A stretch of DNA of 64,000 bases from an uncultured Actinomycetes bacterium (GCA_963830835.1 CAWHNJ010000022.1:67434-131433); one strand, 5' to 3'. Positions 18,827-32,938 are shown, numbered from the stretch's first letter. Notes: generated by a model not told the origin, from the letters alone. A program made the numbers and translations.

Positions 18827-19754
18827 GTGACGGACTCTCGGCTCGTGCTCGTGGCGCTCGGCGGCAACGCGCTGCTGCGGCGCGGCGAGCCGATGACGGC
18901 AGCGGCGCAACGCGCGAACGTCCGCGTCGCCGCCGAGGCGCTCGCGCCCGTCGCGGAGCGCCACCGGCTCGTGCTCTCCCACGGCAACGGCCCGCAGGTG
19001 GGGCTGCTCGCGCTGCAGGCGGCCGCGTACTCGGAGGTCGAGCCGTATCCGCTCGACATCCTCGCCGCCGAGACGGAGGGGATGATCGGCTACCTCATCG
19101 AGCAGGAGCTCGGCAACCTCCTGCCGTTCGAGGTGCCCTTCGCGACGATCCTGACCATGGTCGAGGTCGATCCCGACGATCCCGCGTTCGACCGGCCGAC
19201 GAAGTTCATCGGCCCGGGCTACGACGAGGCGGAGGCGCGCAAGCTCGAGGAGGCAGCACGGCTGGGCCTTCGCGCTCGACGGTGACCGCTGGCGCCGCGT
19301 CGTCCCCTCCCCCACACCGACACGCATCTTCGAGCACCGGCCCATCAAATGGCTGCTCGAGAAGGGCACCATCGTCATCTGCGCCGGTGGCGGCGGCATT
19401 CCCACGATGTACGAGCAGAACGGCACACGCACGCTCGTCGGCGCGGAGGTGATCGTCGACAAGGACCGTGCGAGCGCGCTGCTCGCACGGGAGATCGAGG
19501 CCGACGTGTTCGTCATGGCGACCGACGTCGACGGCGTGTACCTCGATTGGGGTACCCCGGACGCGAGGCGCCTCGAACAGACGACCCCGGCCGAGCTGCG
19601 CGCCCACGACTTTCCGACGGGCTCGATGGGGCCGAAGGTGGAGGCGGCGTGTGACTTCGTCGAGCGCACGGGCGGCACGGCCGCCATCGGCGCCCTCGCA
19701 GACATCGAGGCCATCGTCGACGGCCGCGCAGGCACGATCGTCGAACCCGACTAG
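18827..19754 (+). CDS. arcC: Carbamate kinase, frameshift near 19258
   Basis: [17 protein letters not shown]...SHGNGPQVG...; continues in the ORF 19407 frame as [19 protein letters not shown]...ICAGGGGIP...[13 protein letters not shown]...ATDVDGVY. Confidence 0.88.
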
Positions 19755-19773
19755 CGTTGCTACCCTGGCCGGC

Positions 19774-20921
19774 GTGCGTCTCCGGAGCGTCGTCGCGCTC
19801 ACCGTCACGCTCGCGGCCGTGGTCGCCACGGGCGCCGGCGCGTTCAACATCGACACCGACCAGCCTCCGCCGCCGGGAGTCGTCGGCACACCGTACTCCT
19901 TCGTCTTCCAGCCCCAGGACGGCGCGCCGCCCTATGGGTTCTGGATCGACGCCGGCGAGATCCCGCCGGGCCTCAAGATGGAGGGCGACGGGACGCTGCA
20001 CGGGACGCCGACCGCCCCGGGCACGTTCAGCTTCACCGTCGGAGGCTCACAGTGCTGCGGTCCCGATTCGCAGATGGGATTCACCCTCACCATTCGCGAC
20101 AAGCTCGCGATCACGACCGCGTCGCTCCCGAGCGCACTGGTGGGAGCGCCATACGCGGCGCCGCTTTCGGTGGTCGGCAACAGCGGCCTGGGCATGGGCT
20201 GGAAGGTGAGTGCGGGCTCGCTCCCAGCGGGCCTGGCCATCGCGCCTGACGGTACGCCTGCGGACACGAAGATCTCAGGCACGCCGACGACAGTCGGCAC
20301 CTCGACGTTCACCGTCAAGGTGGGTGATACCGACGGCTTCCTGCCCGACCGTTCGACGACGCGGCAGTACACGCTCGCCGTCGTGGCGCCGTTCGCGGTC
20401 ACGGCCGCTGCAAGCAAGCTCCCAACCGGCATCGTCGGCAAGGTGTACAGAGGGACGCCGGCGACCGCTGCAGGCGGCCTCTCCCCCTACACGTGGGCCG
20501 TGTCGGGCGGGACCCTGCCGGCCGGGCTCACGCTCGACCCTGCGACGGGTGCGCTCGTCGGAAGGCCGACGACCGCGGGCTCGTACGCGCTGTCGATCCG
20601 GGCAACGGACGCGGACGGCCGCATGGGCACCGCAGATGTAGCGATCACGATTGCCGCGCGCTGGACCTCGTCACCACTCGCCTTCGCACTGCGACAGTCG
20701 GCGACCCGTATAGAGCAACGCTGCGCGCGCAGGGCGGTCAGGCGCCGCGGACGTTCACGATCACCCGCGGGAAGCTCCCGGGCAAGCTGAAGCTCAACGC
20801 GAGGTCTGGCGTCATCAGCGGGACGCCCCAGACAGCCGGCACGTTCCGCTTCACGGTGACGGCGAGGGACGCACTCGGCCAGCGCTCGTCCGAGCGGCTG
20901 TCGCTGACCGTTCACGCGTAG
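19774..20921 (+). CDS. Secreted protein with about 5 'putative Ig' (He_PIG/cadherin-like) repeats, frameshift near 20658
   Basis: Signal peptide VRLRSVVALTVTLAAVVATGAGA. Repeats of the form GxPY...GG.PY.W....G.LP.GL.L....G...GTPT..G...FTV. The last repeat is in the ORF 20493..20921 frame. Confidence 0.7.
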
Positions 20922-20991
20922 TCGCGTCGGGATAGATTCAGCCCGCCCATCCGAATAGCGCTTCGACACCCGCCGACGCACGTGGACTCTT

Positions 20992-21174
20992 GTGCAGTCC
21001 GTCCTCGTAACCGAGTCGCTGACGAACAAGGAGTACAACTCATCGGTGCTGCTGGACGGCACGAAGCTGTTCCGCATCGCGGTGCCGAAGGGAACGACGC
21101 TGCGCGCGGTCTTGCCGCTCCAGGCCGCCAAACCGTGCTACCTCGCCGGCTACAGCAAGCTCGTGCGCGCCTGA
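20992..21174 (+). pseudogene. Orphan C-terminal fragment (60 aa) of the tandem secreted-paralog family
   Basis: VQSVLVTESLTNKEYNSSVLLDGTKLFRIAVPKGTTLRAVLPLQAAKPCYLAGYSKLVRA matches only the last ~55 aa of the paralogs at 22.4-28.0 kb. There is no signal peptide or N-terminal domain, and local GC is lower. Confidence 0.5.
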
Positions 21175-21180
21175 GGGTCC

Positions 21181-21200
21181 ATATCAGATTAATCTGATAT
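21181..21200. promoter_or_regulatory. Perfect 20-bp AT-rich palindrome ATATCAGATTAATCTGATAT, a candidate toxin-antitoxin operator
   Basis: It lies 12 bp upstream of the antitoxin ATG (21213). It is the only AT-rich perfect palindrome in the neighbourhood. Confidence 0.6.
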
Positions 21201-21212
21201 GTTTGGCCACCG

Positions 21213-21470
21213 ATGGCTCGCCTGACCGCGACGGAAGTGGCCCGTCGCTTCTCGAGATCCTGAACCGGGTTGCGGACGGGGAGGAGATCGAGGTGAGCGC
21301 GGGGGCGCCCCGTGGCCGTCATCACCCCGCCGAGACGGCGCCTGCTGTCCGCGGAGCGGTTCCGTGAGCTGATGGCGTCCGCGCCACCCGTGGACGACGA
21401 CTTCGTCACCGACGTACGTCGGATCCGCCGTGAGGCTGGGATAGCCGAGGAGCGCGCCTGGCCGTCCTGA
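21213..21470 (+). pseudogene. Phd/YefM-like antitoxin with at least two frameshifts
   Basis: MARLTATEVARRFS(E)ILNRVADGEEIEV...PVAVITPPRRRLLSAERFRELMASAPPVDDDFVTDVRRIRREAGIAEERAWPS-stop can be reconstructed only by changing frame near 21255 and near 21300. Confidence 0.55.
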
Positions 21471-21859
21471 TCGACACGGACCTCCTGATCGAGTGGGAGC
21501 GGAGGGAGGACGCTGATGCACTCGAAGCCGTCGTCGGCCCTGTGGAGAGAGCGATCAGCGTCGTGACGGTCAGCGAGCTGCTCCACGGCGTGCACCGTTC
21601 TACGGGCGCACGCCGCGCACGCCGGCGCGCGTTCGTGGAGCACCTGCTGGCGGGCATCGAGGCGCTGCCGATCACGGAGGCGATCGCCCGAGTTCATGCC
21701 GAGGCCTGGGCCGACCTCAGCCGACGCGGCGAAGCCATCGGCGCTCACGACCTCTGGATTGCAGCCACCGCCCTGGCGCACGGCTTCGCCGTCGCGACAC
21801 GCAATCGCAACGATTTCGCGCGCGTTCGTGGGTTACGCGTCCTGGCGCCGGCTCGATAG
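21458..21859 (+). CDS. vapC: PIN-domain toxin (VapC-like), start codon unclear
   Basis: LAVLIDTDLLIEWERRE...ISVVTVSELLHGVH...ITEAIARVHAEAWADLSRRGEAIGAHDLWIAATALAHGFAVATRNRNDF. The ORF track begins only at 21542, because no ATG/GTG/TTG precedes the LIDTD motif. Confidence 0.75.
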   Translation: MAVLIDTDLLIEWERREDADALEAVVGPVERAISVVTVSELLHGVHRSTGARRARRRAFVEHLLAGIEALPITEAIARVHAEAWADLSRRGEAIGAHDLWIAATALAHGFAVATRNRNDFARVRGLRVLAPAR

Positions 21860-21884
21860 CTGGACGTTCGAGAGCAGCCGGACG

Positions 21885-21912
21885 GGAACCTTCCGGCTCG
21901 CATTCGCGACTA
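21885..21912 (+). promoter_or_regulatory. Candidate ECF-type promoter GGAAC-N16/17-CGAC, close enough to give a near-leaderless sigma transcript
   Basis: GGAAC at 21885-89 and CGAC at 21907-10, 6 nt before the GTG at 21917. This is pattern resemblance only. Confidence 0.3.
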
Positions 21913-21916
21913 TGTA

Positions 21917-22458
21917 GTGATGGCGAACCCGCAACCCGCGTCCGAACGACGTGTCGAGCGAGACTTCGAGGTCGAGGACGCCGAGCTCGTGCGGCGGGCG
22001 CAGCTGGGTAGCGTCGCGGCCTTCGAGGCGCTGGTCGTACGGCACGGGCCGCGGCTGCAGCGGTACCTGAGAGTCGAGCTGCGGCACGAGAGCGACGCGC
22101 ACGACGCGTTGCAGGAAGCCCTGACGGCCGCCTGGCGTGGGCTCCCACGCTCCGCCGCGCCGACCGCTTCTGGCCATGGCTTGCCGGCATCGCGTCCAAC
22201 AAGGCTGCCGACGTCCACCGCCGCCGAACGCGAACAGCCGACGCGGAGAGCGCCGGCCGAGACGATGACAACGACCTGCTGCTCGAGACGAGGGAGGCGC
22301 TCTCCGCGCTCCCGCCGCAGTACCGCGAGGTGCTGCTGCTCCGCTACCTGCTCGGGCTGAGCGAGGAGGAAGCGGCGGCGGCGCTCGGCGTCCGCGTCGG
22401 CACGATCAAGTCGAGGAGCTCGCGGGCGCGGCGTGCCTTGCTGGAGGAGCTGGGATGA
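21917..22458 (+). CDS. ECF (group 4) sigma-70 family factor, frameshift near 22146
   Basis: Region 2: ELVRRAQLGSVAAFEALVVRHGPRLQRYL...DAHDALQEALTAAWRGLP. The second frame gives RFWPWLAGIASNKAADVHRRR...LPPQYREVLLLRYLLGLSEEEAAAALGVRVGTIKSRSSRARRALLEEL (region 4). Confidence 0.85.
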
Positions 22459-23730
22459 GGCGCAACCGGCAGGAACAGGAGCACGTCATCCGTCAGCTGC
22501 TCGCCCGTCTCGCCGACGAAGCGGGCGACCCGACGGAGGTCGAGCTGCGCAAGGCCGCGCGGCTCGCGGCCGCCGAAGGACGAAGCCCGCAGCAGCGCCC
22601 GGCCGCGGCCACGCGACCCTGGCGTCCGCTCCGCGTGCGCTGGGCTGCCGGCGGCGCAGCGGCGCTGCTCCTCGCCACGGCCCTCGGCTTCGGCGTCGCC
22701 TCCTGGCTCACTCCGACGAGCAGCGCGCGAACGGACGTCGAGGGCTTCGGCTTCCTGCCCGCGACGGGCTGGACGGTGATCCAGGTCGGGCTCCCCGGCT
22801 CCGCCGAGTCGACGCGCATGGTGGCTGCCAACGTCCCTATCTCGCCTGGCGATCCCAGTCGCGGCCAGCCACCAGCGCTTCACGCATTTCCCCCCGTGGA
22901 CAATCGTTATCGACGCGACACTGAAGGCGCGCGGAGAGCCGGCCCGGGACCTCGCGTTCCCGGTGCGTAGCCTGCCGCTGAGCCTGGCGGACGCGAGGCC
23001 GGTCACCGTGACAGGCCAGCCGACGCTGGAGTACGTCCTCCGCGCGGGAGTCAACGGCTACAACGTCGACGCGAGCGTCACCTTCGCTACCGAGCCCACG
23101 GACGAGATGTTCGGCAAGGCCGAGGAGCAGATCGCGCGACTCGTCGTCGCTCCGGCAGCGATCACGATCTCCGTCCGGCCGACGATCTTCGGACGGCAAG
23201 GCCCGCTCGTCGTATCGGGATCGGTGACGAGCGGGAAGGCCGACGAGAAGGTGACGCTCCAGTTCAGGCAGTGCGGCCTCGTCCCGGCCCAGTTCCGCGA
23301 CCTCACCGAGGTGACGACGCACGAGGGCGGTGGCTGGTCGATCGAGACCGGCGTCCTCGCGAACGGCGTCTTTCGAGCGCTCTCCGGCAGCGACGTGTCG
23401 AACGAGGTGCAAGTGCAGAAGAGGGTGGACGTGCGCCTCGCGCCGGCACCGCCCCGGCGGTTCGTCGTCAACGTCGTCGAGCGGTTCCAGTTCTGGCGGA
23501 AGCAGGTGCTCATCCAGCGCTTCCACCGCGGACAGGGCAAGTGGCTGCTCGTAAAGAAGCTCCGGCTCGTGAACACGAACGCGGCCCCGGGGTCTTCGTT
23601 CGTCTGGTCGACGACCGACGAGTTCGCCGTCGACGTCGCCAAGGGCACGACCATCAGGGCCGTCCTGCCGCTCGCCCAGGCCAAGCCCTGCCACATCGGC
23701 GGCTACAGCAACCTCCTGGTGACGAAGTGA
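22455..23730 (+). CDS. Putative membrane anti-sigma factor whose extracytoplasmic C-terminus is a copy of the secreted paralog family (P1); frameshift in the C-run at 22891-95
   Basis: ATGA overlap with the sigma gene. One TM segment (AAGGAAALLLATALGFGVASWL). The C-terminal 200 aa ITISVRPTIFGRQGPLVVSGSVTSGKADEKVTLQFRQCG...LIQRFHRGQGKWLLV...VAKGTTIRAVLPLAQAKPCHIGGYSNLLVTK align with P2-P6. Confidence 0.6.
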
Positions 23731-24374
23731 GGCGCTCGGCCTGGATCGCAGGGGCGTTCGTCGCAGCCGCGCTCAGCCTGGGCTTCCGGGCCGCCGCTGA
23801 CGAAACGATCTCGTGGTGGGTCCGTCCGCTGATCGTCCGCTGGGACGAGCTCGTCACGGCCAGCGGGACGATCGGGAGCGGCCAGGCGGGCCAGCTGGTG
23901 ACGATCCAGCAACGCGTCTGCGACCAGCAGACGTGGCGAGACGTCGGAGAGGCAACTACCACGGACGGTGGCAACTGGTCGGTCGACTTCCTCACCAGGA
24001 TCAGCGGGCTCCTGCGTGCCACCTCCGGCGGCGCGACGACCGACCCGGTGCAACTCCAGCAGCGGCCGTACGTCTTCTTCTCACAACGCCCTCCAGGGCG
24101 GTTCCGGGCGGGCGTTCAGGCGCAGCGGCAGTACTGGCACAGGAGGATGCGGATCGACCGGTTCGACCGCGCGCGCGGTGCGTGGGTGACGGTGAAGCGC
24201 GTGCTGATCACCAAGACCGAAGGAGACGGGGGCGGCGGCATGTCGGACATCGCGAGCACGACCGACCTCTTCCGAATCAACGTCCCGAAGGGCACGAACC
24301 TGAGAGCCGTCCTGCCCACAGAGGTCGGGAGGCCGTGCTACGTCGCAGGCTTCAGCGCTATCGTCCGCCGTTGA
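23727..24374 (+). CDS. Secreted paralog P2 (unrecognised two-domain family)
   Basis: GTGA overlap with the upstream gene. Signal VRRSAWIAGAFVAAALSLGFRAAA, then ...TIQQRVCDQQTWRD...RIDRFDRARGAWVTV...NVPKGTNLRAVLPTEVGRPCYVAGFSAIVRR. Frame intact. Confidence 0.7.
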   Translation: MRRSAWIAGAFVAAALSLGFRAAADETISWWVRPLIVRWDELVTASGTIGSGQAGQLVTIQQRVCDQQTWRDVGEATTTDGGNWSVDFLTRISGLLRATSGGATTDPVQLQQRPYVFFSQRPPGRFRAGVQAQRQYWHRRMRIDRFDRARGAWVTVKRVLITKTEGDGGGGMSDIASTTDLFRINVPKGTNLRAVLPTEVGRPCYVAGFSAIVRR

Positions 24375-24448
24375 GCAACATCCCCTCGTCACGAAGTGAC
24401 GCGCTCGACACGGGCTATCGGTCTGCTGGAAAGCGCGTCTAACCAGTC

Positions 24449-25087
24449 GTGAGACGCGGGCTCTTCACCGTGGCCGCTGTTGCCGCCGGCCTCGGGCTCG
24501 GCCTCGGCGGCACGGCGGCCGAGACGATCTCGATCAGCGCCCGGCCGACGATCACCGGTGCCGGGGACCGTGTCGTCGTGACCGGCTCGATCGGCAGCGG
24601 ACGCGCCGACGTCGACGTCACGCTCGAGGCGAAGTACTGCGACGAGCCGGCATGGCGGGAGCTTTCCGCGACGCACACCGACCAGGGAGGCACGTGGTAC
24701 CTCGAATACGTGCCGCTGATCACGCAGCTGATCCGGGCGAAGGGCGCGGGCGCCACGAGCACCGAGGTCAAGGTGCAGACGCGGCCCACTGTTTCCCTCG
24801 GCCAGAGGCCACCCGGCATGTTCTTCGTCAACGTCAACTCCCAGCGGGGGTTCTGGCGCAAGCGCGTCTCCCTGCAGCGTTTCGACCGCGAGAAGCGCGT
24901 CTGGCGCGAGATCCGCAAGATCCAGCTCACGGAGACCGGCGCCCCACCGGGCGTCGGCTGGGTGTGGACCGGCAGCGAGAAGGTCCGCGTCCAGGTCCCC
25001 AAGGGAACTACCCTGCGCGCCGTGCTTCCGCTCTCGCAGACGAGGCCGTGCTACCTCGCCGGCTACAGCAACCTTCTGCGACGATGA
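24449..25087 (+). CDS. Secreted paralog P3
   Basis: ORF 24449..25087, intact. Signal MRRGLFTVAAVAAGLGLGLGGTAA, then ISISARPTITGAGDRVVVTGSIGSGRADVDVTLEAKYC...SLQRFDREKRVWREI...QVPKGTTLRAVLPLSQTRPCYLAGYSNLLRR. Confidence 0.75.
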   Translation: MRRGLFTVAAVAAGLGLGLGGTAAETISISARPTITGAGDRVVVTGSIGSGRADVDVTLEAKYCDEPAWRELSATHTDQGGTWYLEYVPLITQLIRAKGAGATSTEVKVQTRPTVSLGQRPPGMFFVNVNSQRGFWRKRVSLQRFDREKRVWREIRKIQLTETGAPPGVGWVWTGSEKVRVQVPKGTTLRAVLPLSQTRPCYLAGYSNLLRR

Positions 25088-25713
25088 GGCGCGCTCGCCC
25101 TCACCGTCGTCGTCGTATTCGCGACCGCAGGCCTCGCCGCTGCCGCCGTCGTCGCGGACAGCGTGACGCTGCAGCTGCGCGCGAACGTCCTTCGCTCGAA
25201 CGAGTACAGCGTGGGTGTCGTGGGCGACATCTCGAGCGGCGCAGAGGGCGAGTACGTGGTCGTGAAAGGCAAGGAGTGCGGCATCCCGGGCGCATTCTTC
25301 CGCGGCCTCGGCGGCGGTACGACTCTCGCGGGGGGCCGGTACGAGGCGTCCGTCCTCGTCCGCACGAAGACGACGCTCCGCGCCGAGTGGAAGGGGACGA
25401 CGAGCCTGCCGGTGGTCGTCAACAAGCGCGCGTACATCACGCTCACGAAGGAGGAGGACGGCTTCCGCGTAGGCGTAGCAAGCGAGACGCACAACGTCGA
25501 CGGGAAGAAGGCGACCATCGAGCGCCTCACGTCCACGGGTTGGAGGAAGCTCCAGACGGTCGTCCTGAAGGCGCAGCCGGTTACGTCCAGTACGCGGAGA
25601 AGAAGAAGCTCCGCTTCCAGGTGCCGAAGGGGACGACGATCCGCGCGGTGCTCCCGCGCTCGCAGGCTGGCGCCTGCTACCTGGCCGGATACAGCAAGCT
25701 GGTGCGAACATGA
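25084..25713 (+). pseudogene. Secreted paralog P4 with two frameshifts (near 25097 and 25585)
   Basis: ATGA overlap with P3. Reconstructed as MRRALALTVVVVFATAGLAAAAVVADSVTLQL...VVVKGKECG...IERLTSTGWRKLQTVVLKAQ-GYVQYAEKKKLRFQVPKGTTIRAVLPRSQAGACYLAGYSKLVRT. Confidence 0.65.
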
Positions 25714-26333
25714 GGTCGCGTTCGGCGCTCTGCTGTCCTTCTAGCTGTCGGGGCGACGGCAGCTACGGCGCTCGCCGCGGCTGCTGACACCGTGACCATC
25801 GCCGCCCACCCGGGAAATCGATCCGCTGGCCGGCGATCGCGTCGCTGGCGGGACAGGTCTCGAAGGGCAAGGCAGGCGAGATCGTCACGCTCGAGGCCAA
25901 GCAGTGCCCATCGCAAGTGTTCTCGGAGATCGGCCGGACTCGCACGACTGCGGGCGGCGCCTGGTCCGCGGAAGCCGGAGTGCAGACGAAGACCACGATA
26001 CGCGCCACGTGGCAAGGCTCCCGCAGCCGCCACAGTGGTCGTCCTCGTTCGCCCACACCTCGTGCTCGGCCAAGTCTCGAGCCGTCTCTTTCGGGCATAC
26101 CTCACGCTCGGAAGGTTTGCGAACGGCAAGCAGCTCGTGCTCCAGCGCTTCGGCGGCGAGGATCGTGGCTGGACCGCCGTCAAGGCGTTCGTCTTCCGAA
26201 GCCCGTCGACCGGCTGGCCGCAGATGACCTTCACGGCAAGCGTGCCGAAGGGAACGCTGCTGCGGTTGACGCTGCCGCGCGCCAGGCACAACCGTGCTAC
26301 CTAGCCGGATACAGCAACCTGCTACAGACGTAG
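25710..26333 (+). pseudogene. Secreted paralog P5 with at least four frameshifts
   Basis: ATGA overlap with P4. Pieces in two frames: TVTIAAHPG / EIDPLAGDRVALAGQVSKGKAGEIVTLEAKQCPSQ...TTIRATWQGSRS / ATVVVLVRPHLVL...LVLQRFGGEDRGWTAVKAF...SVPKGTLLRLTLPRA / QAQPCYLAGYSNLLQT. Confidence 0.6.
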
Positions 26334-26343
26334 AGGAGGCGAC

Positions 26344-27349
26344 GTGACGGAAGTCGGAGGGAACCTCGGGCAGGCGGCGGAGATCGCCGGGCGACTGCTC
26401 GCGAACATCGAGACGGTCGTCCACGGCAAGACGGACGAGGTGCGGCTCGTGCTCGCGGCGCTCGTCTGCGACGGCCACGTCCTGCTCGAGGACGTGCCGG
26501 GCACGGCGAAGACCGTGCTCGCCCGCGCCATCGCCGGCTCGGTGGAGGGCGCGTCCTTCGCGCGCATCCAGTGCACGCCCGACCTCCAGCCGACCGACGT
26601 CACCGGCCTGTCCGTCTTCAACCAGCGCGACCGCGACTTCGAGTTCCGGCCCGGGCCAGTGTTCGCGAACGTCCTGCTCGTCGACGAGATCAACCGTGCG
26701 ATGCCGAAGACGCAGTCGGCGCTGCTCGAGGCGATGGCTGAGTACCAGGCGACGATCGACGGCGTCACCCGCGAGCTGCCGAAGCCGTTCCTCGTGCTCG
26801 CCACCGAGAACCCGATCGAGCAGGAGGGGACGTTCCCGCTGCCGGAGGCTCAGCTCGACCGCTTCCTGCTCCGTACCGCGCTCGGCTACCCGGGCGAGGA
26901 GGAGGAGCTGCGGATCGTCGAGGAGCAGGTGGTGCGGCATCCGCTCAGCGGGCTACAGCCCGTGCTGTCGCTCGACGAGGTCAACACGCTGCGCGAAGCG
27001 ACCCACAGCGTGTACATCGATCCGCTGCTGCGGCGCTGGGCGATCCGGCTCGTGCGCGCGACGCGGGAGGCCGAGGGCGTGGCGATCGGCGCCTCTGTCC
27101 GCGGCTCGCTCGCCCTCGAGCGCTCGGCGCGCGCATGGGCGCTCCTCTCCGGCCGCGAGTTCGTGACGCCGGTCGACATCGAGCGGCTCTTCCTCCCTGT
27201 CGTCATGCACCGGATCGTGTTCACGCCGAGCTACGTCGCCACAGCACGCGAGATCGGCTGGCGGGAGGCGGCGGACGGGTTCCAGCGTCAGTGTCTCGAG
27301 ATCGCGCCGCCAGCCCGGAGTCGAGCTCGAGCAGGCCGTTTCGGTATGA
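26344..27349 (+). CDS. moxR: MoxR-family AAA+ ATPase, frameshift near 27310 just before its stop
   Basis: GHVLLEDVPGTAKTVLARAIA (Walker A), VLLVDEINRAMPKTQSALLEAM (Walker B), ATENPIEQEGTFPLPEAQLDRF. The real end GVELEQAVSV-stop overlaps the next ATG (ATGA 27346-49). An AGGAGG SD precedes the GTG at 26344. Confidence 0.9.
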
Positions 27350-28022
27350 AGTTGCTCGCGCTGGCGGGGCTCGGGCTGGCGCTCGCAGGCGGCGTCGCCG
27401 CAGCTTCGAGCCAGGCCGACCCGGTGACGCTGTCCATGCGCCAGTACACGAACTCGAGCAAATGGCGGGTCCACGTGTGGTACGGCCAGGTGGCGACCGG
27501 CGCAGCGGGCGAGGACGTCGAGGTGCTGGGGCAGGCGTGCCTCACGAAGGGCTTCCGCCTCTACATGGCGACGAAGACCGTTCCCGGAGGCGGCTACGAG
27601 GCCGAGAGCGTGTCTACGCAAATCCCCTACCAGCATCGGTGCAGGTCGACTCCGGCACGACGTTCCGGGCGCGCTGGCGAGACCAGCTCAGCAACACGAT
27701 CCTCCACAAGACTCCGATACTCGGCTTCTACCCGGTGAAGATCCCCAAGCGGCGAGCGTGGAAGGTGGTCGTCAACCCGGCGCCGCTCTACATGAAGCTG
27801 GGCGGCAAGCCCGTCATCCTGCAGCGCTTCCGTGCCGGCAAGTGGGAGCGCTTCAAGAGCGCGCCACTCGTCCTCAAGGCGAACTACGACTACGGCGGCG
27901 CGACGAACTACGAGGCGGTCTTCGAGACTCCCACGCGCGGCATGCGGCTTCGCGCCATCGTGCCCGCCAAGACCGTTGCGCCGTGCTACCTCGGCAAGAC
28001 GAGCCCGTCGTGGCGCACGTGA
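27346..28022 (+). CDS. Secreted paralog P6 (divergent member), frameshift near 27630
   Basis: MKLLALAGLGLALAGGVAAASS...EDVEVLGQACL...ASVQVDSGTTFRARWRD...VILQRFRAGKWERFKS...RGMRLRAIVPAKTVAPCYLGKTSPSWRT. Confidence 0.6.
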
Positions 28023-28608
28023 GGCTCCTTTTGTCGGCGTCGCTGCGGCCTCGCGGTCGCGGCCGGGATCGCCAGCGCAGCCTCGCAGCCCGCGTCGCGG
28101 ATCGTCGACCGCACGATGCTCTGCAAGACCTGGGGCTCCGGCTACCCCGACCCACTCCGCACCATGGCGGTCGTCGGCGTGCCCAACCAGGCGCAGGCCA
28201 CGAACGGGCCACAGGGATCGCCGCGGTTCGTCGTGGCCCAGATCGCCCTGGGGGTGAACGGCCAGGATCAGGTGGTCGTCAGCCGCACCGCGTGTGCTCC
28301 CACGAGCAAGCGCCTCCAGCTGTCTGCAAAAGGGCTGCGCAGCGGCGTGACCGACTTCGGAAACAAGTGGAAGTGCCCGGTGCCCGCCTCGGTGCTGATC
28401 CGTGTCCGCGCCGCCTTCGCGGGGCCGGTGACTCTCAAGCCGGCGCCGGACGCGAGCTACCTCCTGATCGCCACGGGACGTATCTCGAGCGGCTCGCTGG
28501 CCATCAAGACGAAGGACGGGACACCGCCTCGCCTTCGCGTCCGTCGACAACCGCGGGAAGGGCGCCATCTTCGTCGCCAGGCCCCGCTGCCAGCGGAACC
28601 GTTTTTGA
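28019..28608 (+). pseudogene. Hypothetical secreted Cys-containing protein with two frameshifts (near 28045 and 28535)
   Basis: GTGA overlap with P6 and TTGA overlap with DUF58. Core MLCKTWGSGYPDPLRTMAVVGVPNQ...VSRTACAPTSKRLQL...NKWKCPVPASVLIRVRAAF...LAFASVDNRGKGAIFVARPRCQRNRF. No known family recognised. Confidence 0.45.
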
Positions 28609-29507
28609 CGGCGACGACCTTCCCACTGATCCCGCGGCGGCGGGTGCTCGGCTTGCCGTTCGGAGCGCTGCACAGCGCGCGCCGCGGTCTCGGCTCTGAC
28701 GTCGCCGGCTCCCGCCCCTACCAGCCGGGGGACGACATCGACCGCATCGACTGGTACGCGTCGGCGCGGCTGTCCCTCGCGCGCGGCTCGGACGAGTTCG
28801 TCGTCCGCGAGCATTTCGCCGAGGAGGCGCCGCGCGTCGTCTCGCTCGTCGACCGCCGGCCGTCGATGTCGATCTTCCCCGAGGGCTGGCCCTGGCTGCA
28901 GAAGCCGGAGGCGATCCGCGGCGCGGTGCGGCTCATCTCCGACAGCGCCATCGCCGCCCGCGGCCTGCTCGGCTACCTCGACGAAGGCGAAGGCGAGCCG
29001 TTCTGGCACCCGCCGCGGAGCCAACACCTGCTCGGGGACGCCGACCTCGAGCGGCCGTTCGAGGCGCCTGCCGACACGCTCACGCGCAGCCTGCACCATC
29101 TCGTCGCGCAGCGCCGCGACCTGCCCGCAGGCACGTTCGTCTTCGTCATCTCAGACTTCCTCGAGCGGCCGAGCCGCGACGACTGGCTGCTCGTGCTCGA
29201 ACGGCGGTTCGAGATCGTGCCGGTGATCGTGCAAGACCTGCTCTGGGAGCAGAGCTTCCCCGACGTGAGCGGCGCGGCGGTGCCGTTCGCGGACGCCGCC
29301 ACCGGCCGCGTCTCACTGGCGGCGCTACGCGAGCACGAGGCGGCCGAGCGGCGCGAGCAGAACGAGACGCGCTTCCGCGACCTCGTCCGCGAGTTCCACG
29401 GGCTCGCGATGGATCCCGTCGTCGTCTCGTCGCACGAGCACCGCGACGTCGTCTTCTCGTTCCTCTCCTGGGCCGACCAGCGGCTGCTGACGAGGGGACG
29501 GCCGTGA
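28605..29507 (+). CDS. DUF58 (vWA-like, MoxR-associated) protein
   Basis: TTG start. GSDVAGSRPYQPGDDIDRIDWYASARL is the DUF58 hallmark (RxYxxGDxxRxIDW). The rest of ORF 28116..29507 is intact. Confidence 0.85.
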   Translation: MTATTFPLIPRRRVLGLPFGALHSARRGLGSDVAGSRPYQPGDDIDRIDWYASARLSLARGSDEFVVREHFAEEAPRVVSLVDRRPSMSIFPEGWPWLQKPEAIRGAVRLISDSAIAARGLLGYLDEGEGEPFWHPPRSQHLLGDADLERPFEAPADTLTRSLHHLVAQRRDLPAGTFVFVISDFLERPSRDDWLLVLERRFEIVPVIVQDLLWEQSFPDVSGAAVPFADAATGRVSLAALREHEAAERREQNETRFRDLVREFHGLAMDPVVVSSHEHRDVVFSFLSWADQRLLTRGRP

Positions 29508-30427
29508 GGCGCGCCGCCCTGCTTGCGCTGCTCGCCGCCGTAGCGCTCGCCGCGGGCTGCGGCGGAGGTGGTGAGGACATCGCGGCGCTGCCTCCCGGAA
29601 GCTTCGTCTCCGCGAGCGGAGAGCTCGGGCCGCCCATCCATCTCTTCGGCGACACGATCGGCGCAGACGTCAGCGTCGTCGTCGACAAGACGAAGCTCGA
29701 CCCGGGACGGGTCAGCCTGAAGACGTTCTTCGAGCCGTACGAGCCGATCGAGGAGATGGAGGTCGCTCGCCGCGAGGCAGGGAATCTGGCGGAGATTCGC
29801 TACCGGCCCGTCTCCGCTGCCTCGAGCGTGCCTGCATCACCTCGACCCTCGGGACGATCCAGAATCCGGCGGAGTGCGCCGCGCACGTTCCGGTTCCAGC
29901 CCGCGCAGGTGCAGTACACCGATCCCGGCGCGGAACAGCCGCGGCTCCTGCGCACGGTCCGGTTCTCGCCGATCGAATCGGTCACGCGCATCAACGCGCA
30001 GGACGTGACGCAGGTCTACGGCTTCCCCTTCCGCGGCAGCTTCACGCCGCTGCCCGCGATCTCGCAGCGCATGTCCGCGACGACGCTCGGCGTCCTCCTG
30101 CTTCTGCTCGCGGCGGCCTTGCTCGTGCTGCCCGTGATCCTGGCCCTCCGCTGGTGGCGCGCACGCAGACAGCCGCCGCCGCCCGAGCCCGAGCCGGAGC
30201 CCACGCCGCTCGAGCGCGCGATCGCACTCGTCGAGTGGTCGCTGGCGAGTGAGAACGGAGCCGAGCGGCGGGCGGCGCTCGACGCGCTCGCCACGGAGCT
30301 GGACGTCGTTGAGTCGAACGGCCTGGCCGACGAGACACGCGTTGCGGCCTGGTCGCCGCCCTCGCCCTCGACCGACGAGGCAGAGCGAATCCTCACCCTC
30401 GTGAAGGAGCGGCATGGCGACGCTTGA
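29504..30427 (+). CDS. Lipoprotein with a C-terminal TM anchor (occupies the BatD-like position)
   Basis: Lipobox LALAAGCGGG. TM segment TTLGVLLLLLAAALLVLPVILAL followed by RWWRARRQPPPPEPEPEP. There may be hidden compensating frameshifts at 29808-29885. Confidence 0.6.
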   Translation: MRRAALLALLAAVALAAGCGGGGEDIAALPPGSFVSASGELGPPIHLFGDTIGADVSVVVDKTKLDPGRVSLKTFFEPYEPIEEMEVARREAGNLAEIRYRPVSAASSVPASPRPSGRSRIRRSAPRTFRFQPAQVQYTDPGAEQPRLLRTVRFSPIESVTRINAQDVTQVYGFPFRGSFTPLPAISQRMSATTLGVLLLLLAAALLVLPVILALRWWRARRQPPPPEPEPEPTPLERAIALVEWSLASENGAERRAALDALATELDVVESNGLADETRVAAWSPPSPSTDEAERILTLVKERHGDA

Positions 30428-31232
30428 GCGCGCGTTCCCGTCGGCCGAGACTGCGCCGCTGCGCCGCGTCGTGCGGCGGACGACGCTCATTCGCATCGCA
30501 CTCGCCCTCGCGCTCGTGGGCGCGCTGGCGCTCGCCTTCCTCGCCGCCCGCGACTCGGACGTGAGGCACGCGCCGCTCGTGCCCTCGGGGACGACCGGCG
30601 TCGTCGTGCTCGATCTCTCGGCGAGCGTCTACGAGGCTGCCTTCGGCTCGACGCTGCAGAAGATGGCGCGGCAGGGCGAGCGCGCCGGCCTCGTCGTCTT
30701 CTCGGACTCGGCCTACGAGGTGCTGCCGCCGGGGACACCCGGCCGCGAGCTGCTGCCCTTCCTCCGCTTCTTCCGCCCCGACCCGAACAGCACGACCGGC
30801 AGCTTCCCACCCAATCCGTGGCAGGACTTCCGCGCCGGCACGCGCATCTCGGCGGGCCTCGCCGAAGCGCACGCGTCGCTCGTCTACGCCGGCGCGAAGA
30901 AGGGCTCGATCCTCATCGTCTCCGACCTGGAGATCCTCCCTGACGAGGTGGCGCGGCTCGGCCACGTGATCGCCGACGTGCGCCGGGACGGCATCGAAGT
31001 CCGCATCCTCCCCGTCAATCCCAGCGCCGAGAAGCGGCGCTCATGGAGGAGATCCTCGGCAAGGGAGCGTTCCTCAAGGAGAAGGCGGAGGAGGCAGCGC
31101 CGAAGGAAGCGCCGGAGAAGGAGAGCCTGCGGCTGGCGGCGCCCTGGCTGTTCATGCTCGCCGCCGGCCTCGTCGTGGTGCTGCTCGCCACCAACGAGCG
31201 GCTGCTCGGGACGTCTGGAGGTGCGCCGATGA
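30414..31232 (+). pseudogene. Membrane-anchored vWA-domain protein (BatA/BatB-like) with two frameshifts (near 31035 and 31205)
   Basis: N-terminal TM segment, then GVVVLDLSASV (DxSxS MIDAS) ...GLVVFSDSA...ILIVSDLE. The middle section is in the ORF 31043 frame (MEEILGKGAFL...WLFMLAAGLVVVLLA). It ends RLEVRR-stop, overlapping the next ATG. Confidence 0.7.
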
Positions 31233-31859
31233 GGTGGCGGCGCTGGCTCGTTCCGGCCTTGGCCGTGCTCTGCGTGCCCGTGGCGGTCGTGCTCGCGCTC
31301 TTCGCCGTCGACGTGCTGCGTGTCGGCGACTCCGTCACCGAGGACGACGTCCGCTTCAAGCAAGGCCAACACTGCAGGCAGGGCTCTTCGACGACCCCGG
31401 TTTCCTGCCCGGTCACATCGCCGCGAAGGCGGTCGGTCTCGAGGACGACCTGCGCTATCGCCGCGCGGTCTGGCTCTATGCCCGCGCCGACCCGAGCAAC
31501 ACGACGGTGTACCTCTCGCCCGCCCAGGAGGCGTTGCGGGCGAGCCTGGAGCCGAAGCTCATCGATGCCAGCCGGGCGGAGACCGATCCCCGACGGCGTT
31601 CGCGGCTGCTCAACCTCTTGGGCATCGTCGCGATGAGCCGCTACGCCGTCGACCCCGGCGACCGCTCCAACACCGTTCGTGCGGCCATCGACTCGTTCAC
31701 GAACGCGATCAACATGGACCCGACCAACGTCGACGCGAAGTTCAACCTCGAGATCGTCCTGCGCGACTTCTTCCACCAGGTCGCGCCCGGCGTCTCCCCG
31801 GACCGCGGCCGGCTGGGCGGGAACGTCGCCGGCGTCGGCCGCGACGGCAGCGGTACTGA
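31229..31859 (+). pseudogene. Membrane-anchored helical protein (occupies the BatC/TPR-like position) with frameshifts near 31370 and 31855
   Basis: MRWRRWLVPALAVLCVPVAVVLALFAV...; second frame LQAGLFDDPGFLPG...AIDSFTNAINMDPTNVDAKFNLEIVLRD (TPR-like). A TGATG junction joins it to the next gene. Confidence 0.5.
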
Positions 31860-32748
31860 TGGACCTGACGTTCCTCACGCCGATGGCGGCGATCTTCGCC
31901 GTGTCGGCGTTGCTGCCGCTCGGCATCTACTGGTTTCGCGAGCGGCGCGCCTCCAAGATCCGGAGTGCGCTCGGGCTGGAAGAGCCGTCGTGGCGCTCCC
32001 GTGCGCCGCTTGTGGCGGCAGTGGCCGCAGTGCCACTGCTGCTCGGAGTCGCGGCCGCACAGCCGGTGCTCGGCACCGAGCGCTCCGTGCCCGAGCGGAC
32101 GGACGCCGAGGCATTCTTCGTCATGGACACGTCGCGCTCGATGCTGGCAGCGGACGGCCCCGAAGCCGCCACACGCTTTGACCGTGCGGTCGAGGTCGCC
32201 TCGGAGATCCACGACCGGATCCCGCAGGTGCGTTCCGGCATCGTGTCGATGACCGACCGCCTACTGCCCCATGCCCTGCCGACCACCGACCGGCGGTGTT
32301 CGAGACGACGCTCCGGCGGTCGATCGGCGTCGAGCTGCCGCCGCCCGCGTTCACCTACTCCACCTATGCGACGTACTACGACATCCTCGCCGGGATCCCG
32401 CAGCGCAAGTTCTTCTCGCCAGCGGCGAAGAAGCGGCTGCTCGTCGTGATGACCGACGGCGAGTCGCGGCCGTTCGGTTCCCAGCTCGGCGCGGCGTTTC
32501 CCGGCAAGCCTCCGATCGAGACCGTCCTCGTCCGCTTCGGGAACGCCGACGAGCGCATCTACACGACGGGCGAGGCAGAGGGCTACGTGCCCGCCAAGAA
32601 CAGCGAGCAGACGATCGCGCGCGTGGCCGACCTGATGGGCGGCCGCGCGTTCTCCGAGGACGACGTGTCCGCGGCCGGCGACGCCGTCGCCGAGATCGTC
32701 GGCGAGGGAGCGACGAACGACAGGAAGATCCCGGGCGCGCGTCGGTAG
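31859..32748 (+). CDS. vWA-domain membrane protein (BatA-like), frameshift near 32290
   Basis: MDLTFLTPMAAIFAVSALLPLGIYWF...AFFVMDTSRSMLA (DxSxS)...; second frame LLVVMTDGESRPF... Confidence 0.75.
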
Positions 32749-32938
32749 GCGGGCTCATGCCCTGGGTGCCGTCGGTGACGCTCGGCCGTGGCGCAGGAAT
32801 CGCGGCCTGAGCGAGAACCGTCCTTCCGGCGTGCCGCTCGCGCTTCCTCCTGTGGCGAGAGGACACCGCGTCCCGCTCGCGTAGCCCACGAACGCGACGA
32901 CAAGCCCCGTCGCGGCGGCCACACTGCTGCGATCCTCG

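Follow-up and report, generated by a model that had tools for sequence, protein, structure and literature searches.

An ECF sigma factor from uncultured Gaiellales and its putative anti-sigma factor, whose distal module is a paralog of exported proteins encoded downstream

We analyzed a 64,000-nucleotide stretch of DNA (GCA_963830835.1 CAWHNJ010000022.1:67434-131433; G+C content, ~70%), hereafter the window, from an uncultured soil actinobacterium of the Gaiellales. It carries a gene for an extracytoplasmic function (ECF) sigma factor, overlapped by a gene at 22455 to 23730 for a membrane protein that we propose to be the cognate anti-sigma factor, with an N-terminal region predicted to bind the sigma factor. 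Sequence comparison confirms that the C-terminal module of this protein, here called P, is a genuine paralog of the exported proteins encoded downstream (P2 to P6, the free P proteins), with a similarity far beyond chance. A membrane-proximal domain, JM, precedes the P module. The promoter-like motif, the gene pair, and the parts of the membrane protein are as follows.

21885..21912, plus strand: ECF-type promoter-like motif GGAACCTTCCGGCTCGCATTCGCGACTA (GGAAC-N17-CGACTA), ending 8 nt before the sigma ATG.
21920..22458, plus strand: ECF sigma gene, ~180 aa, with an assembly frameshift near 22145.
22455..23730, plus strand: putative anti-sigma factor, 424 aa after removal of one C; its ATG overlaps the sigma stop codon.
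22455..22637, plus strand: residues 1-61, the predicted cytoplasmic N-terminal region and presumed sigma-binding part, Arg rich and without Cys.
22638..22709, plus strand: single transmembrane (TM) helix, residues ~62-85, hydrophobic stretch AAGGAAALLLATALGFGVASWL; AlphaFold2 (AF2) predicts a helix at 62-76.
22722..23151, plus strand: JM alpha/beta domain, residues ~90-232, with hidden Markov model (HMM) matches in two frames; it holds the frameshift site.
23152..23727, plus strand: distal sensor P module, residues 233-424 (Pmod HMM, E = 3e-78), two predicted tandem beta-sandwich domains.

In the raw sequence, 22455 to 23730 reads as two overlapping open reading frames (ORFs), 22455..22970 (frame 0, 171 aa) and 22963..23730 (frame 1, 255 aa). 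Judged by comparison with relatives, this split is an assembly indel in one gene, because nearly every neighboring gene carries a similar indel relative to locus L001, which lies on a clean 3.1-Mb chromosome (OY969889) of a metagenome-assembled genome (MAG), has all genes intact, and served as the reference for frameshifts. Third-position G+C content (GC3) places the change from frame 0 to frame 1 near 22885, and coding-type GC3 runs on across the junction. The site is a run of six C residues at 22890-22895 (TTTCCCCCCG), which in a DNA alignment is a run of five (TTTCCCCCG) in L001, L002, L008, and L011; removal of one C yields a single 424-aa ORF. A search among 5.8 billion proteins returned 109 relatives of the reconstructed protein, and more than 50 homologs of 415 to 436 aa match it at 100% coverage (top identity, 92%). 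The earlier note on this DNA had suspected a miscalled C run in a single ORF, and both the relatives with five C residues and the full-length homologs agree. A real frameshift, leaving either a 171-aa anti-sigma factor and a separate 255-aa protein P1 or a decaying pseudogene, would account for the two frames of the raw sequence. It is nevertheless highly improbable, given the shorter C run in four relatives, the >50 homologs that are single ORFs of ~424 aa, the unbroken GC3 signal, the downstream ORF (22963..23730), which taken alone lacks a signal peptide, and the indels relative to L001 in almost every gene of the region, as in a long-read assembly with homopolymer errors. The two-gene reading, a short anti-sigma factor followed by P1, was therefore dropped.

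Within 18845 to 32800, one frameshift each relative to L001 affects the carbamate-kinase-like, sigma, P4, P6, g272, g210, and VWA_2 genes. Indel sites lie at ~19250 (carbamate-kinase-like), ~22145 (sigma), 22895 (anti-sigma), ~25578 (P4), ~27636 (P6), ~31037 (g272), ~31400 (g210), and ~32293 (VWA_2), and the stop codons of two further downstream genes, MoxR and X, are also lost. The pattern is typical of homopolymer errors, suggesting that the window comes from an indel-prone, long-read-type MAG assembly. ORF-based annotation of this region will come out badly fragmented; comparison with relatives can restore genes that seem broken in a long-read MAG.

The paralogy of the sensor module and the free P proteins is seen at several levels. 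Within the 64-kb search space, residues ~233-424 match P3 with 45% identity over 186 aa (E = 2e-46) and P2 with 37% identity (E = 2e-35), and weaker matches were obtained to the frameshifted P4, P5, and P6. In L001, end-to-end alignments link the orthologous sensor domain to each of the five free paralogs (E = 2e-28 to 3e-4). The sensor module ends in the motif KGTTIRAVLP..PCHIGGYS and contains Cys273 and Cys412, both invariant among 65 homologs. These features extend to a nonredundant set of 128 P modules (61 tethered to an anti-sigma-like protein and 67 free): 127 contain exactly two Cys residues, and the C-terminal motif KGTTxRAxLP...PC(Y/H)xxGxS is common to sensor and free modules. At 21 positions, sensor and free modules share the same residue with conservation of at least 80%, and none of the positions in the 128 modules is specific to sensors. 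Tethered and free modules also interleave in a neighbor-joining tree, which is indicative only, since it carries no support values. Together with the alignments to P3 and in L001, the shared Cys pair and terminal motif uphold the earlier note's claim that the last ~200 aa are paralogous to the secreted proteins. The N termini of the free proteins, read from the sequence, resemble signal peptides (e.g., VRRSAWIAGAFVAAALSLGFRAAA in P2 and MRRGLFTVAAVAAGLGLGLGGTAAE in P3).

An AF2 model of the whole protein was built from 65 homologs with P0001 (92% identical to the window protein) as the query. The beta-sandwich pair (residues 236-424) was modeled with a predicted local distance difference test score (pLDDT) of ~90. 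Neither Pfam nor PDB sequences gave a match to the P module. Foldseek of the pair returned hits with a probability of ~1.0 (E = 8e-6 to 1e-3), including PECAM-1 IgL1-2 and the beta-barrel domains of factor XIII and transglutaminase 2; at TM-scores of 0.13 to 0.45, a root mean square deviation of >6.5 Å, and ~10% identity, these resemble the P module in fold class only. The model thus makes a beta-sandwich fold class plausible for the module, with no specific family assignable.

We then consider the case for a sigma/anti-sigma pair. After frameshift correction, the sigma protein matches Pfam Sigma70_r2 (E = 3e-12; 46.7 bits, cutoff of 24) and Sigma70_r4_2 (E = 1e-17; 64 bits, cutoff of 25.7), and it passes the NCBIfam model TIGR02937 sigma70-ECF (73.7 bits versus a cutoff of 42.9); none of the specific ECF subgroup models reached its cutoff. 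With only the sigma-2 and sigma-4 domains in ~180 aa, it has the composition that defines the ECF group (group IV), and it is ~90% identical, across two frames, to the intact L001 gene. Its TGA stop codon overlaps the anti-sigma ATG by 4 nt (ATGA; GGATGAGG), and the same overlap is found in L001, L003, and L004. Across ~30 loci, a sigma gene lies directly 5' of every JM protein, save one cut by a contig end. The ATGA overlap and this constant order thus indicate a gene directly 3' of, and probably cotranscribed with, that of its sigma factor, as is general for anti-sigma genes. The proposal that the membrane protein is sigma coupled therefore held, given the overlap, the two sigma domains, and the sigma gene 5' of every JM gene whose flank is on the contig.

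The topology of the protein is consistent with this role. Because Arg and Lys residues are concentrated before the TM helix (14 in residues 1-62 versus one in the 20 residues after it), the positive-inside rule predicts a cytoplasmic N terminus and an extracytoplasmic C terminus. The confinement of the invariant Cys pair to the C-terminal module fits a single-TM anti-sigma factor with its N terminus inside. AF2 predicts, with low confidence, helices at residues 2-21 and 28-40, and L31, A35, R36, A38, and an RPWRPLRLRW stretch are conserved in this region. Residues 1-61 contain no Cys, so that the HxxxCxxC motif of zinc-binding anti-sigma (ZAS, class I) factors is absent; the protein is not a classical ZAS factor, as the earlier note had said. 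No Pfam family, zf-HC2 and RskA-type domains included, matched the window protein or, consistently, the 65 homologs. The NCBIfam model NF052375 ("anti-sigma factor") gave weak matches at residues ~13-94 in 42 of these homologs (best E = 2e-5).

Alternatively, the 424-aa protein may not be an anti-sigma factor and may instead be a membrane-anchored structural part of the P/X-MoxR-VWA system encoded downstream, lying beside its regulator. The missing Pfam anti-sigma domain and ZAS motif would fit, as would a very short cytoplasmic part (~60 aa) modeled with low confidence. We consider this improbable: sigma adjacency with translational coupling is strict in all cassettes, each JM gene in tandem loci (two or three pairs) has its own sigma gene, and the NF052375 matches recur across homologs. 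In addition, a short cytoplasmic N terminus, one TM helix, and an extracytoplasmic domain make up the canonical architecture of ECF anti-sigma factors. One protein, P0090, first resembled a natural sigma-anti-sigma fusion; it was rejected as a frameshift chimera with a scrambled region 4.

The segment between the TM helix and the P module had been described as a ~120-aa spacer, a description that has to be revised. It spans ~150 aa and is a conserved, confidently folded domain, JM, which AF2 places at ~98-232 (pLDDT of 75 to 90; 85.8 when modeled alone, with a predicted template modeling score of 0.81). The motifs GxGFLPAxGW, AANVP, LRAxVxGYNV, and QxxRLVV mark the domain, which is common to all anti-sigma-like proteins of these cassettes, whatever their distal module, and is probably central to signaling. 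Foldseek of the JM-only model against the PDB gave nothing at E ≤ 0.001 (best E = 0.085); lipoate ligase and RseB (E = 0.1 to 0.5; TM-score, <0.37) were rejected as noise. The full model returned generic tandem immunoglobulin (Ig) matches only, the family profile gave only a chance-level match to Mediator subunit 8 among PDB sequences (E = 0.14), and no Pfam or NCBIfam family exceeded threshold for the anti-sigma, P2, P3, X, or JM+X proteins. Within AANVP (residues 124-128; window 22830-22845), at the end of a beta-strand, Asn126 never varies, and Ala124, Ala125, Val127, and Pro128 vary little or not at all. It is pure speculation, by loose analogy to the Asn-Pro site of RsgI, that this motif could mark a processing or cleavage site.

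By its sequence and position, the motif that precedes the sigma gene is predicted to be an autoregulated ECF promoter of the classical type, with a GGAAC-like −35 element and a −10 element of the CGT/CGA type. As only 8 nt separate it from the sigma ATG, the transcript probably has little or no leader. The window contains a single GGAAC-N16-18-CGACTA (21885-21912), versus 0.01 occurrences expected by chance. In an alignment of the upstream regions of ten loci, nine of which have the motif, the upstream neighbors vary (a carbamate-kinase-like gene, a He_PIG gene, or, in the window, vapC); despite these differences, the sole conserved island upstream of sigma is GGAAC(C/T)TT-N14-GCGACTAT. In 18 loci, the motif lies 8 to 27 nt before the sigma start, as extrapolated from HMM matches, and almost nowhere else in these loci. 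A looser pattern, GGAAC-N16-18-CGAC, gave 11 matches versus ~4 expected; apart from the sigma promoter, these lie away from gene starts in the mapped operon, and they were dismissed as chance. In tandem loci with several sigma subtypes, GGAACYTT-N14-GCGACT is found only at the window-type sigma gene; the other sigma genes presumably use other promoters.

The genes that follow the pair, and a remnant that precedes it, are listed below.

23727..24374, plus strand: P2, free exported P-module protein with a GTG start, 88% identical to L001 g216.
24449..25087, plus strand: P3, free exported P-module protein, intact 212-aa ORF, the closest paralog of the sensor.
25084..25713, plus strand: P4, free P-module protein, frameshift near 25578 and a probable second one just after the start codon.
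25710..26333, plus strand: P5, free P-module protein with several frameshifts.
26344..27349, plus strand: MoxR-type AAA+ ATPase, 96% identical to the L001 gene, frameshift near the 3' end.
27346..28022, plus strand: P6, free P-module protein of a divergent subtype between MoxR and DUF58, frameshift near 27636.
28030..28610, plus strand: free exported X-domain protein (VIDRTxxC...; Xdom HMM, E = 1e-43), whose 3' end runs into the DUF58 frame.
28611..29507, plus strand: DUF58 gene, by orthology to L001.
29504-32800, plus strand: DUF4381-like, VWA-like, TPR-like, and VWA_2 membrane proteins, with DUF58 a Bat-like module.
20959..21174, plus strand: P0, a P-module remnant from the C-terminal half (matching Pmod HMM positions 122-189, E = 7e-23).

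Where the two can be aligned, the products of the window operon genes show 83 to 96% identity to their L001 counterparts. The GTG start of P2 overlaps the anti-sigma stop codon (GTGA), and ATGA overlaps recur at the P3/P4 and P4/P5 junctions. The L001 MoxR gene matches Pfam bpMoxR, AAA_3, AAA_5, and AAA_lid_2. Pfam searches of the L001 and L004 orthologs place MoxR, DUF58, and VWA_2 in one cluster, the combination that characterizes Bat-like operons; the Pfam matches of the DUF4381-like, VWA-like, and TPR-like proteins are weak and below threshold. Rfam and tRNA scans of the window found nothing.

The coding sequences of the anti-sigma factor and of P2 to P4 begin with Met/Val-Arg-Arg (22455, 23727, 24449, and 25084), and that of P5 with Met-Arg-Ser (25710); four of these five starts lie inside a near-identical stop/start overlap, (A/G)TGAGGCGC. 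The repeated junctions and shared start residues hint at growth of the array through duplication of units with the junction included. Upstream of sigma, P0 is probably a pseudogene fragment; its tblastn alignment to P3 reaches 20863 (42% identity over 102 aa) across in-frame stop codons.

Such a history raises the prospect that the resemblance of sensor and neighbors is an evolutionary by-product: the 3' part of anti-sigma genes, which encodes the sensor, would have been duplicated and shuffled time and again to yield the free P and X genes, or the reverse, without cross talk to signaling, and the free copies would now be independent, for instance as envelope or adhesin-like accessories of the MoxR-VWA system. 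The junctions that repeat TGAGGCGC fit unit duplication, and the P remnant at 20959-21174, a free copy number that ranges from 0 to 6, the interleaving of sensor and free modules in the tree, and the presence of free P or X between MoxR and DUF58 whatever the sensor type all point the same way. Against this, the conserved surface motif and the Cys pair are kept in both classes at identities down to 25 to 30%, and the neighbor of a sensor is of its own type in the majority of cases, even when the domain is unrelated to P. The by-product explanation also leaves open why anti-sigma factors in particular recruit these modules. We regard it as possible but, on the whole, rather unlikely.

A census by six-frame HMM scan covered 31 distinct loci in addition to the window. 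Save for one partial match, the family is limited to MAGs labeled Gaiellales, Gaiellaceae, Thermoleophilia, or "uncultured Actinomycetes." Metagenomes contain 1500 clusters at 50% identity (E ≤ 1e-3), and among 253 retrieved proteins the architectures were JM-P (141), free P (69), and JM-X (24). L001 and L004 share the order sigma, anti-sigma, three to four free P, MoxR, zero to two P (plus X in L001), and DUF58, followed by DUF4381-like, VWA-like, TPR-like, and VWA_2 genes. Among the most divergent members, L003 and the P0108 contig (36 to 38% identity), MoxR-DUF58 comes immediately after the anti-sigma gene and a free P is lacking; MoxR-DUF58 thus follows the cassette even in these loci.

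The distal module after JM is either P or an unrelated X domain of ~180 aa with four Cys residues in full-length copies and the signature VIDRTxxC...C..PL..GL...C.P..VLVRVR.... All-pairs profile-profile comparison of P, X, and JM (hhalign) gave a probability of at most 1.2%, and below 1% for P versus X; hhalign shows no relation, and we abandoned the notion of X as a divergent form of P. The neighbor of a sensor tends to match it. A free P is the next gene after JM+P in all 13 cases with anything before the next sigma or MoxR gene, and a free X is the next gene after JM+X in 6 of 10 cassettes (loci listed: L015, L016, L019, L022, L024, L028, and L031); in L020, X still lies downstream of JM+X, after an intervening P. 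A second, separate sigma/anti-sigma pair whose module is of a P6-like subtype (L025 and L029) is present in genomes with a window-type locus, and the best match of the L025 sensor is the adjacent free copy (42% identity, E = 1e-42). The pattern of a sensor resembling its neighbor therefore recurs with three module types (P, P6-like, and X), which keeps a functional link plausible. Since related genomes repeat the arrangement with the unrelated X domain, the design looks deliberate.

Two side observations concern the loci of the census. X, which has no Pfam match, occurs both free between MoxR and DUF58 and as a distal module borne by JM. Tandem sigma/JM cassettes, up to three, lie upstream of one MoxR-DUF58 in L012, L015, L016, L018, L019, L020, and L028, with at least three sigma subtypes.

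Taken together, these data lead us to favor, with a probability of roughly 0.6, an autoregulated ECF pair that heads a P/X-MoxR-VWA operon and senses a target shared by tethered and free modules, with optional competition between them. The Cys-free N terminus, with its two helices, would hold the sigma factor inside the cell, while the JM domain outside the cell would carry the distal P module. The tethered P would bind the same envelope target as the free P proteins, which may be a cell-envelope ligand or a component of an extracytoplasmic VWA complex. Engagement or loss of this target would change JM in such a way that the anti-sigma factor loses its activity, probably through the regulated proteolysis known from other ECF systems, and the freed sigma factor would transcribe the operon from GGAAC-N17-CGACTA. 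Free P proteins made from the same transcript could then compete for the target, a feedback that we see as optional and lineage specific and not as the primary signal.

Several observations weigh against this reading. The N-terminal region, on which sigma binding would depend, is modeled with a pLDDT of only ~56 to 64 and contains no Pfam anti-sigma domain, and the NF052375 matches all fall far below the 100-bit cutoff of the model, which makes them supportive without conferring membership. No further copies of the promoter motif were found in the window before the P genes or MoxR, so that control of these genes by the sigma factor would have to come from cotranscription, which the gene spacing suggests. 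Export of the free P proteins is predicted from their N-terminal sequences and Cys pairs. In ~15 cases, about half, JM+P is followed by no free copy; loci such as L003, L012-L017, L021, and L028 pass directly to MoxR or to the next sigma gene. Conversely, free P or X proteins occur in loci without a matching sensor, as with the X before DUF58 in the window clade and the free P in L024 and L026, whose sensor is JM+X.

Since about half of the JM+P cassettes have no nearby free P, the free paralogs cannot serve as an obligatory signal; any part they play is either dispensable or filled from elsewhere in the genome. Titration by free paralogs, which the earlier note had offered as one example of a signal, thus does not hold as a general mechanism. 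The same loci bear on direct homotypic sensing, in which the free P (or X) would itself be the ligand of the tethered module and the circuit would gauge the abundance or export of its own products. This would fit the match in type between sensor and next gene for three module types and the identical conserved positions in sensor and free copies. The best Foldseek match, the trans-homophilic Ig pair PECAM-1 IgL1-2, would also fit, though it is a generic fold match only. However, operons without free P are found in L003, L013, L014, L017, L021, and the P0108 contig, and the match in type would also follow if the 3' end of the anti-sigma gene had simply been duplicated in tandem. We therefore consider homotypic sensing quite unlikely.

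The preferred reading, shared-target sensing by an autoregulated pair, can be put in a bolder form: a JM transducer with a grafted copy of the exported family of its own operon (P, P6-like, or X), in which tethered and free copies compete for, or bind, each other or a site on the MoxR-driven VWA envelope complex. We consider this bolder form doubtful. If it is true, the sigma factor would report on its own products, on their export, abundance, or state of assembly, which would amount to a general modular design for feedback-sensing anti-sigma factors and provide a first regulatory handle on Bat/MoxR-VWA systems.

Among the major modes of transmembrane signaling in bacteria, ECF sigma/anti-sigma pairs constitute the third, and the sensing logic of most anti-sigma ectodomains is unclear. 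In the RsgI family, distal modules such as CBM3 and PA14 are akin to cellulosomal modules. To our knowledge, a sensor built from the regulon's own module has so far been described mainly for these clostridial cellulosome sensors. The closest analog of the protein described here is RsgI, the anti-sigma-I factor of Clostridium (Acetivibrio) thermocellum and partner of SigI, of which RsgI6 is reported to carry a GH10 domain that binds xylan (PMC10328401, PMC4711584, PMC6852018). Like RsgI, our protein combines a putative sigma-binding N terminus, a single TM helix, a conserved extracytoplasmic domain next to the membrane, and a distal module that varies; in both systems the distal module is of the same kind as modules in the secreted proteins under control, or here presumed control, of the system, and several paralogous pairs with different distal modules occur per genome. 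The differences are equally clear. The sigma factor here is a two-domain ECF protein and not SigI, and the Pfam domain RsgI_N was found neither in the protein nor in its homologs. The periplasmic domain of RsgI is an alpha/beta/alpha sandwich with Asn-Pro autocleavage between beta1 and beta2 (PMC10328401), whereas JM has no PDB match at E ≤ 0.001, even though RsgI periplasmic-domain structures are available in print, with no RsgI among the 50 best matches listed, and its alignment contains no invariant Asn-Pro but a conserved AANVP. In addition, the distal P and X modules are uncharacterized, and the matching free proteins are whole-protein paralogs encoded immediately downstream and not modules within enzymes. 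Membership in the RsgI family fails on every defining feature tested.

RpoE-RseA and SigW-RsiW are the canonical ECF pairs released by regulated proteolysis. The pair in the window resembles them in its translational coupling and predicted cotranscription, in a predicted autoregulatory promoter whose −35 element is GGAAC and whose −10 element is CG rich, and in a single-pass anti-sigma factor predicted to have its N terminus inside. Unlike them, the window protein has no class I domain or HxxxCxxC motif, its cytoplasmic part is limited to ~60 aa with two helices, and its ectodomain is in two parts (JM plus P or X); proteolysis is presumed by analogy. Class II anti-sigma factors such as CnrY are closer in size to this cytoplasmic part. 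The 3' half of the operon resembles the Bat-like MoxR-DUF58-VWA operons described for Bacteroides aerotolerance, Leptospira Bat, and Borrelia BB0170-BB0176 (PMC3557215, PMC5700661), with a MoxR AAA+ ATPase, DUF58, DUF4381-like, VWA membrane, and TPR-like proteins. In the literature, we found no Bat-type operon headed by an ECF pair or with P/X exported proteins between its genes, and nothing relevant that links ECF or anti-sigma factors with MoxR or DUF58.

The comparison indicates that the feature is real, conserved, and uncharacterized, an instance of ECF signaling with what is, by sequence, a new ectodomain design. It offers a clean modular case, in which a conserved JM domain without a solved structural relative carries swappable modules that mirror free exported neighbors. 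In this uncultured actinobacterial order, the principle known from RsgI seems to have arisen independently, and on more than one occasion. The family also links an ECF switch to the MoxR-DUF58-VWA (Bat-like) operons, a class whose function and regulation are unclear, and the sigma factor, predicted promoter, and sensor module are handles for heterologous reconstitution.

Two minor observations concern the margins of the family and of the locus. The exception to its taxonomic range is L035 (CAVVDJ010000001.1), a 623-kb contig with the order P(partial)-MoxR-P-DUF58 in a MAG labeled "uncultured beta proteobacterium"; the contig is either misbinned or mislabeled, or it represents the only occurrence of the P family outside the Actinomycetota. 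Upstream of the promoter, the window carries ~2.1 kb (~19780-21860) not present at this position in L001 and L004, which suggests a local rearrangement or insertion next to the promoter. This stretch holds a He_PIG-repeat exported protein, P0, and, at 21542-21859, a vapC-like gene with a PIN domain (Pfam PIN, E = 8e-14) and a possible antitoxin upstream. In L004 the He_PIG gene follows VWA_2, and in L008-L010 it precedes sigma.

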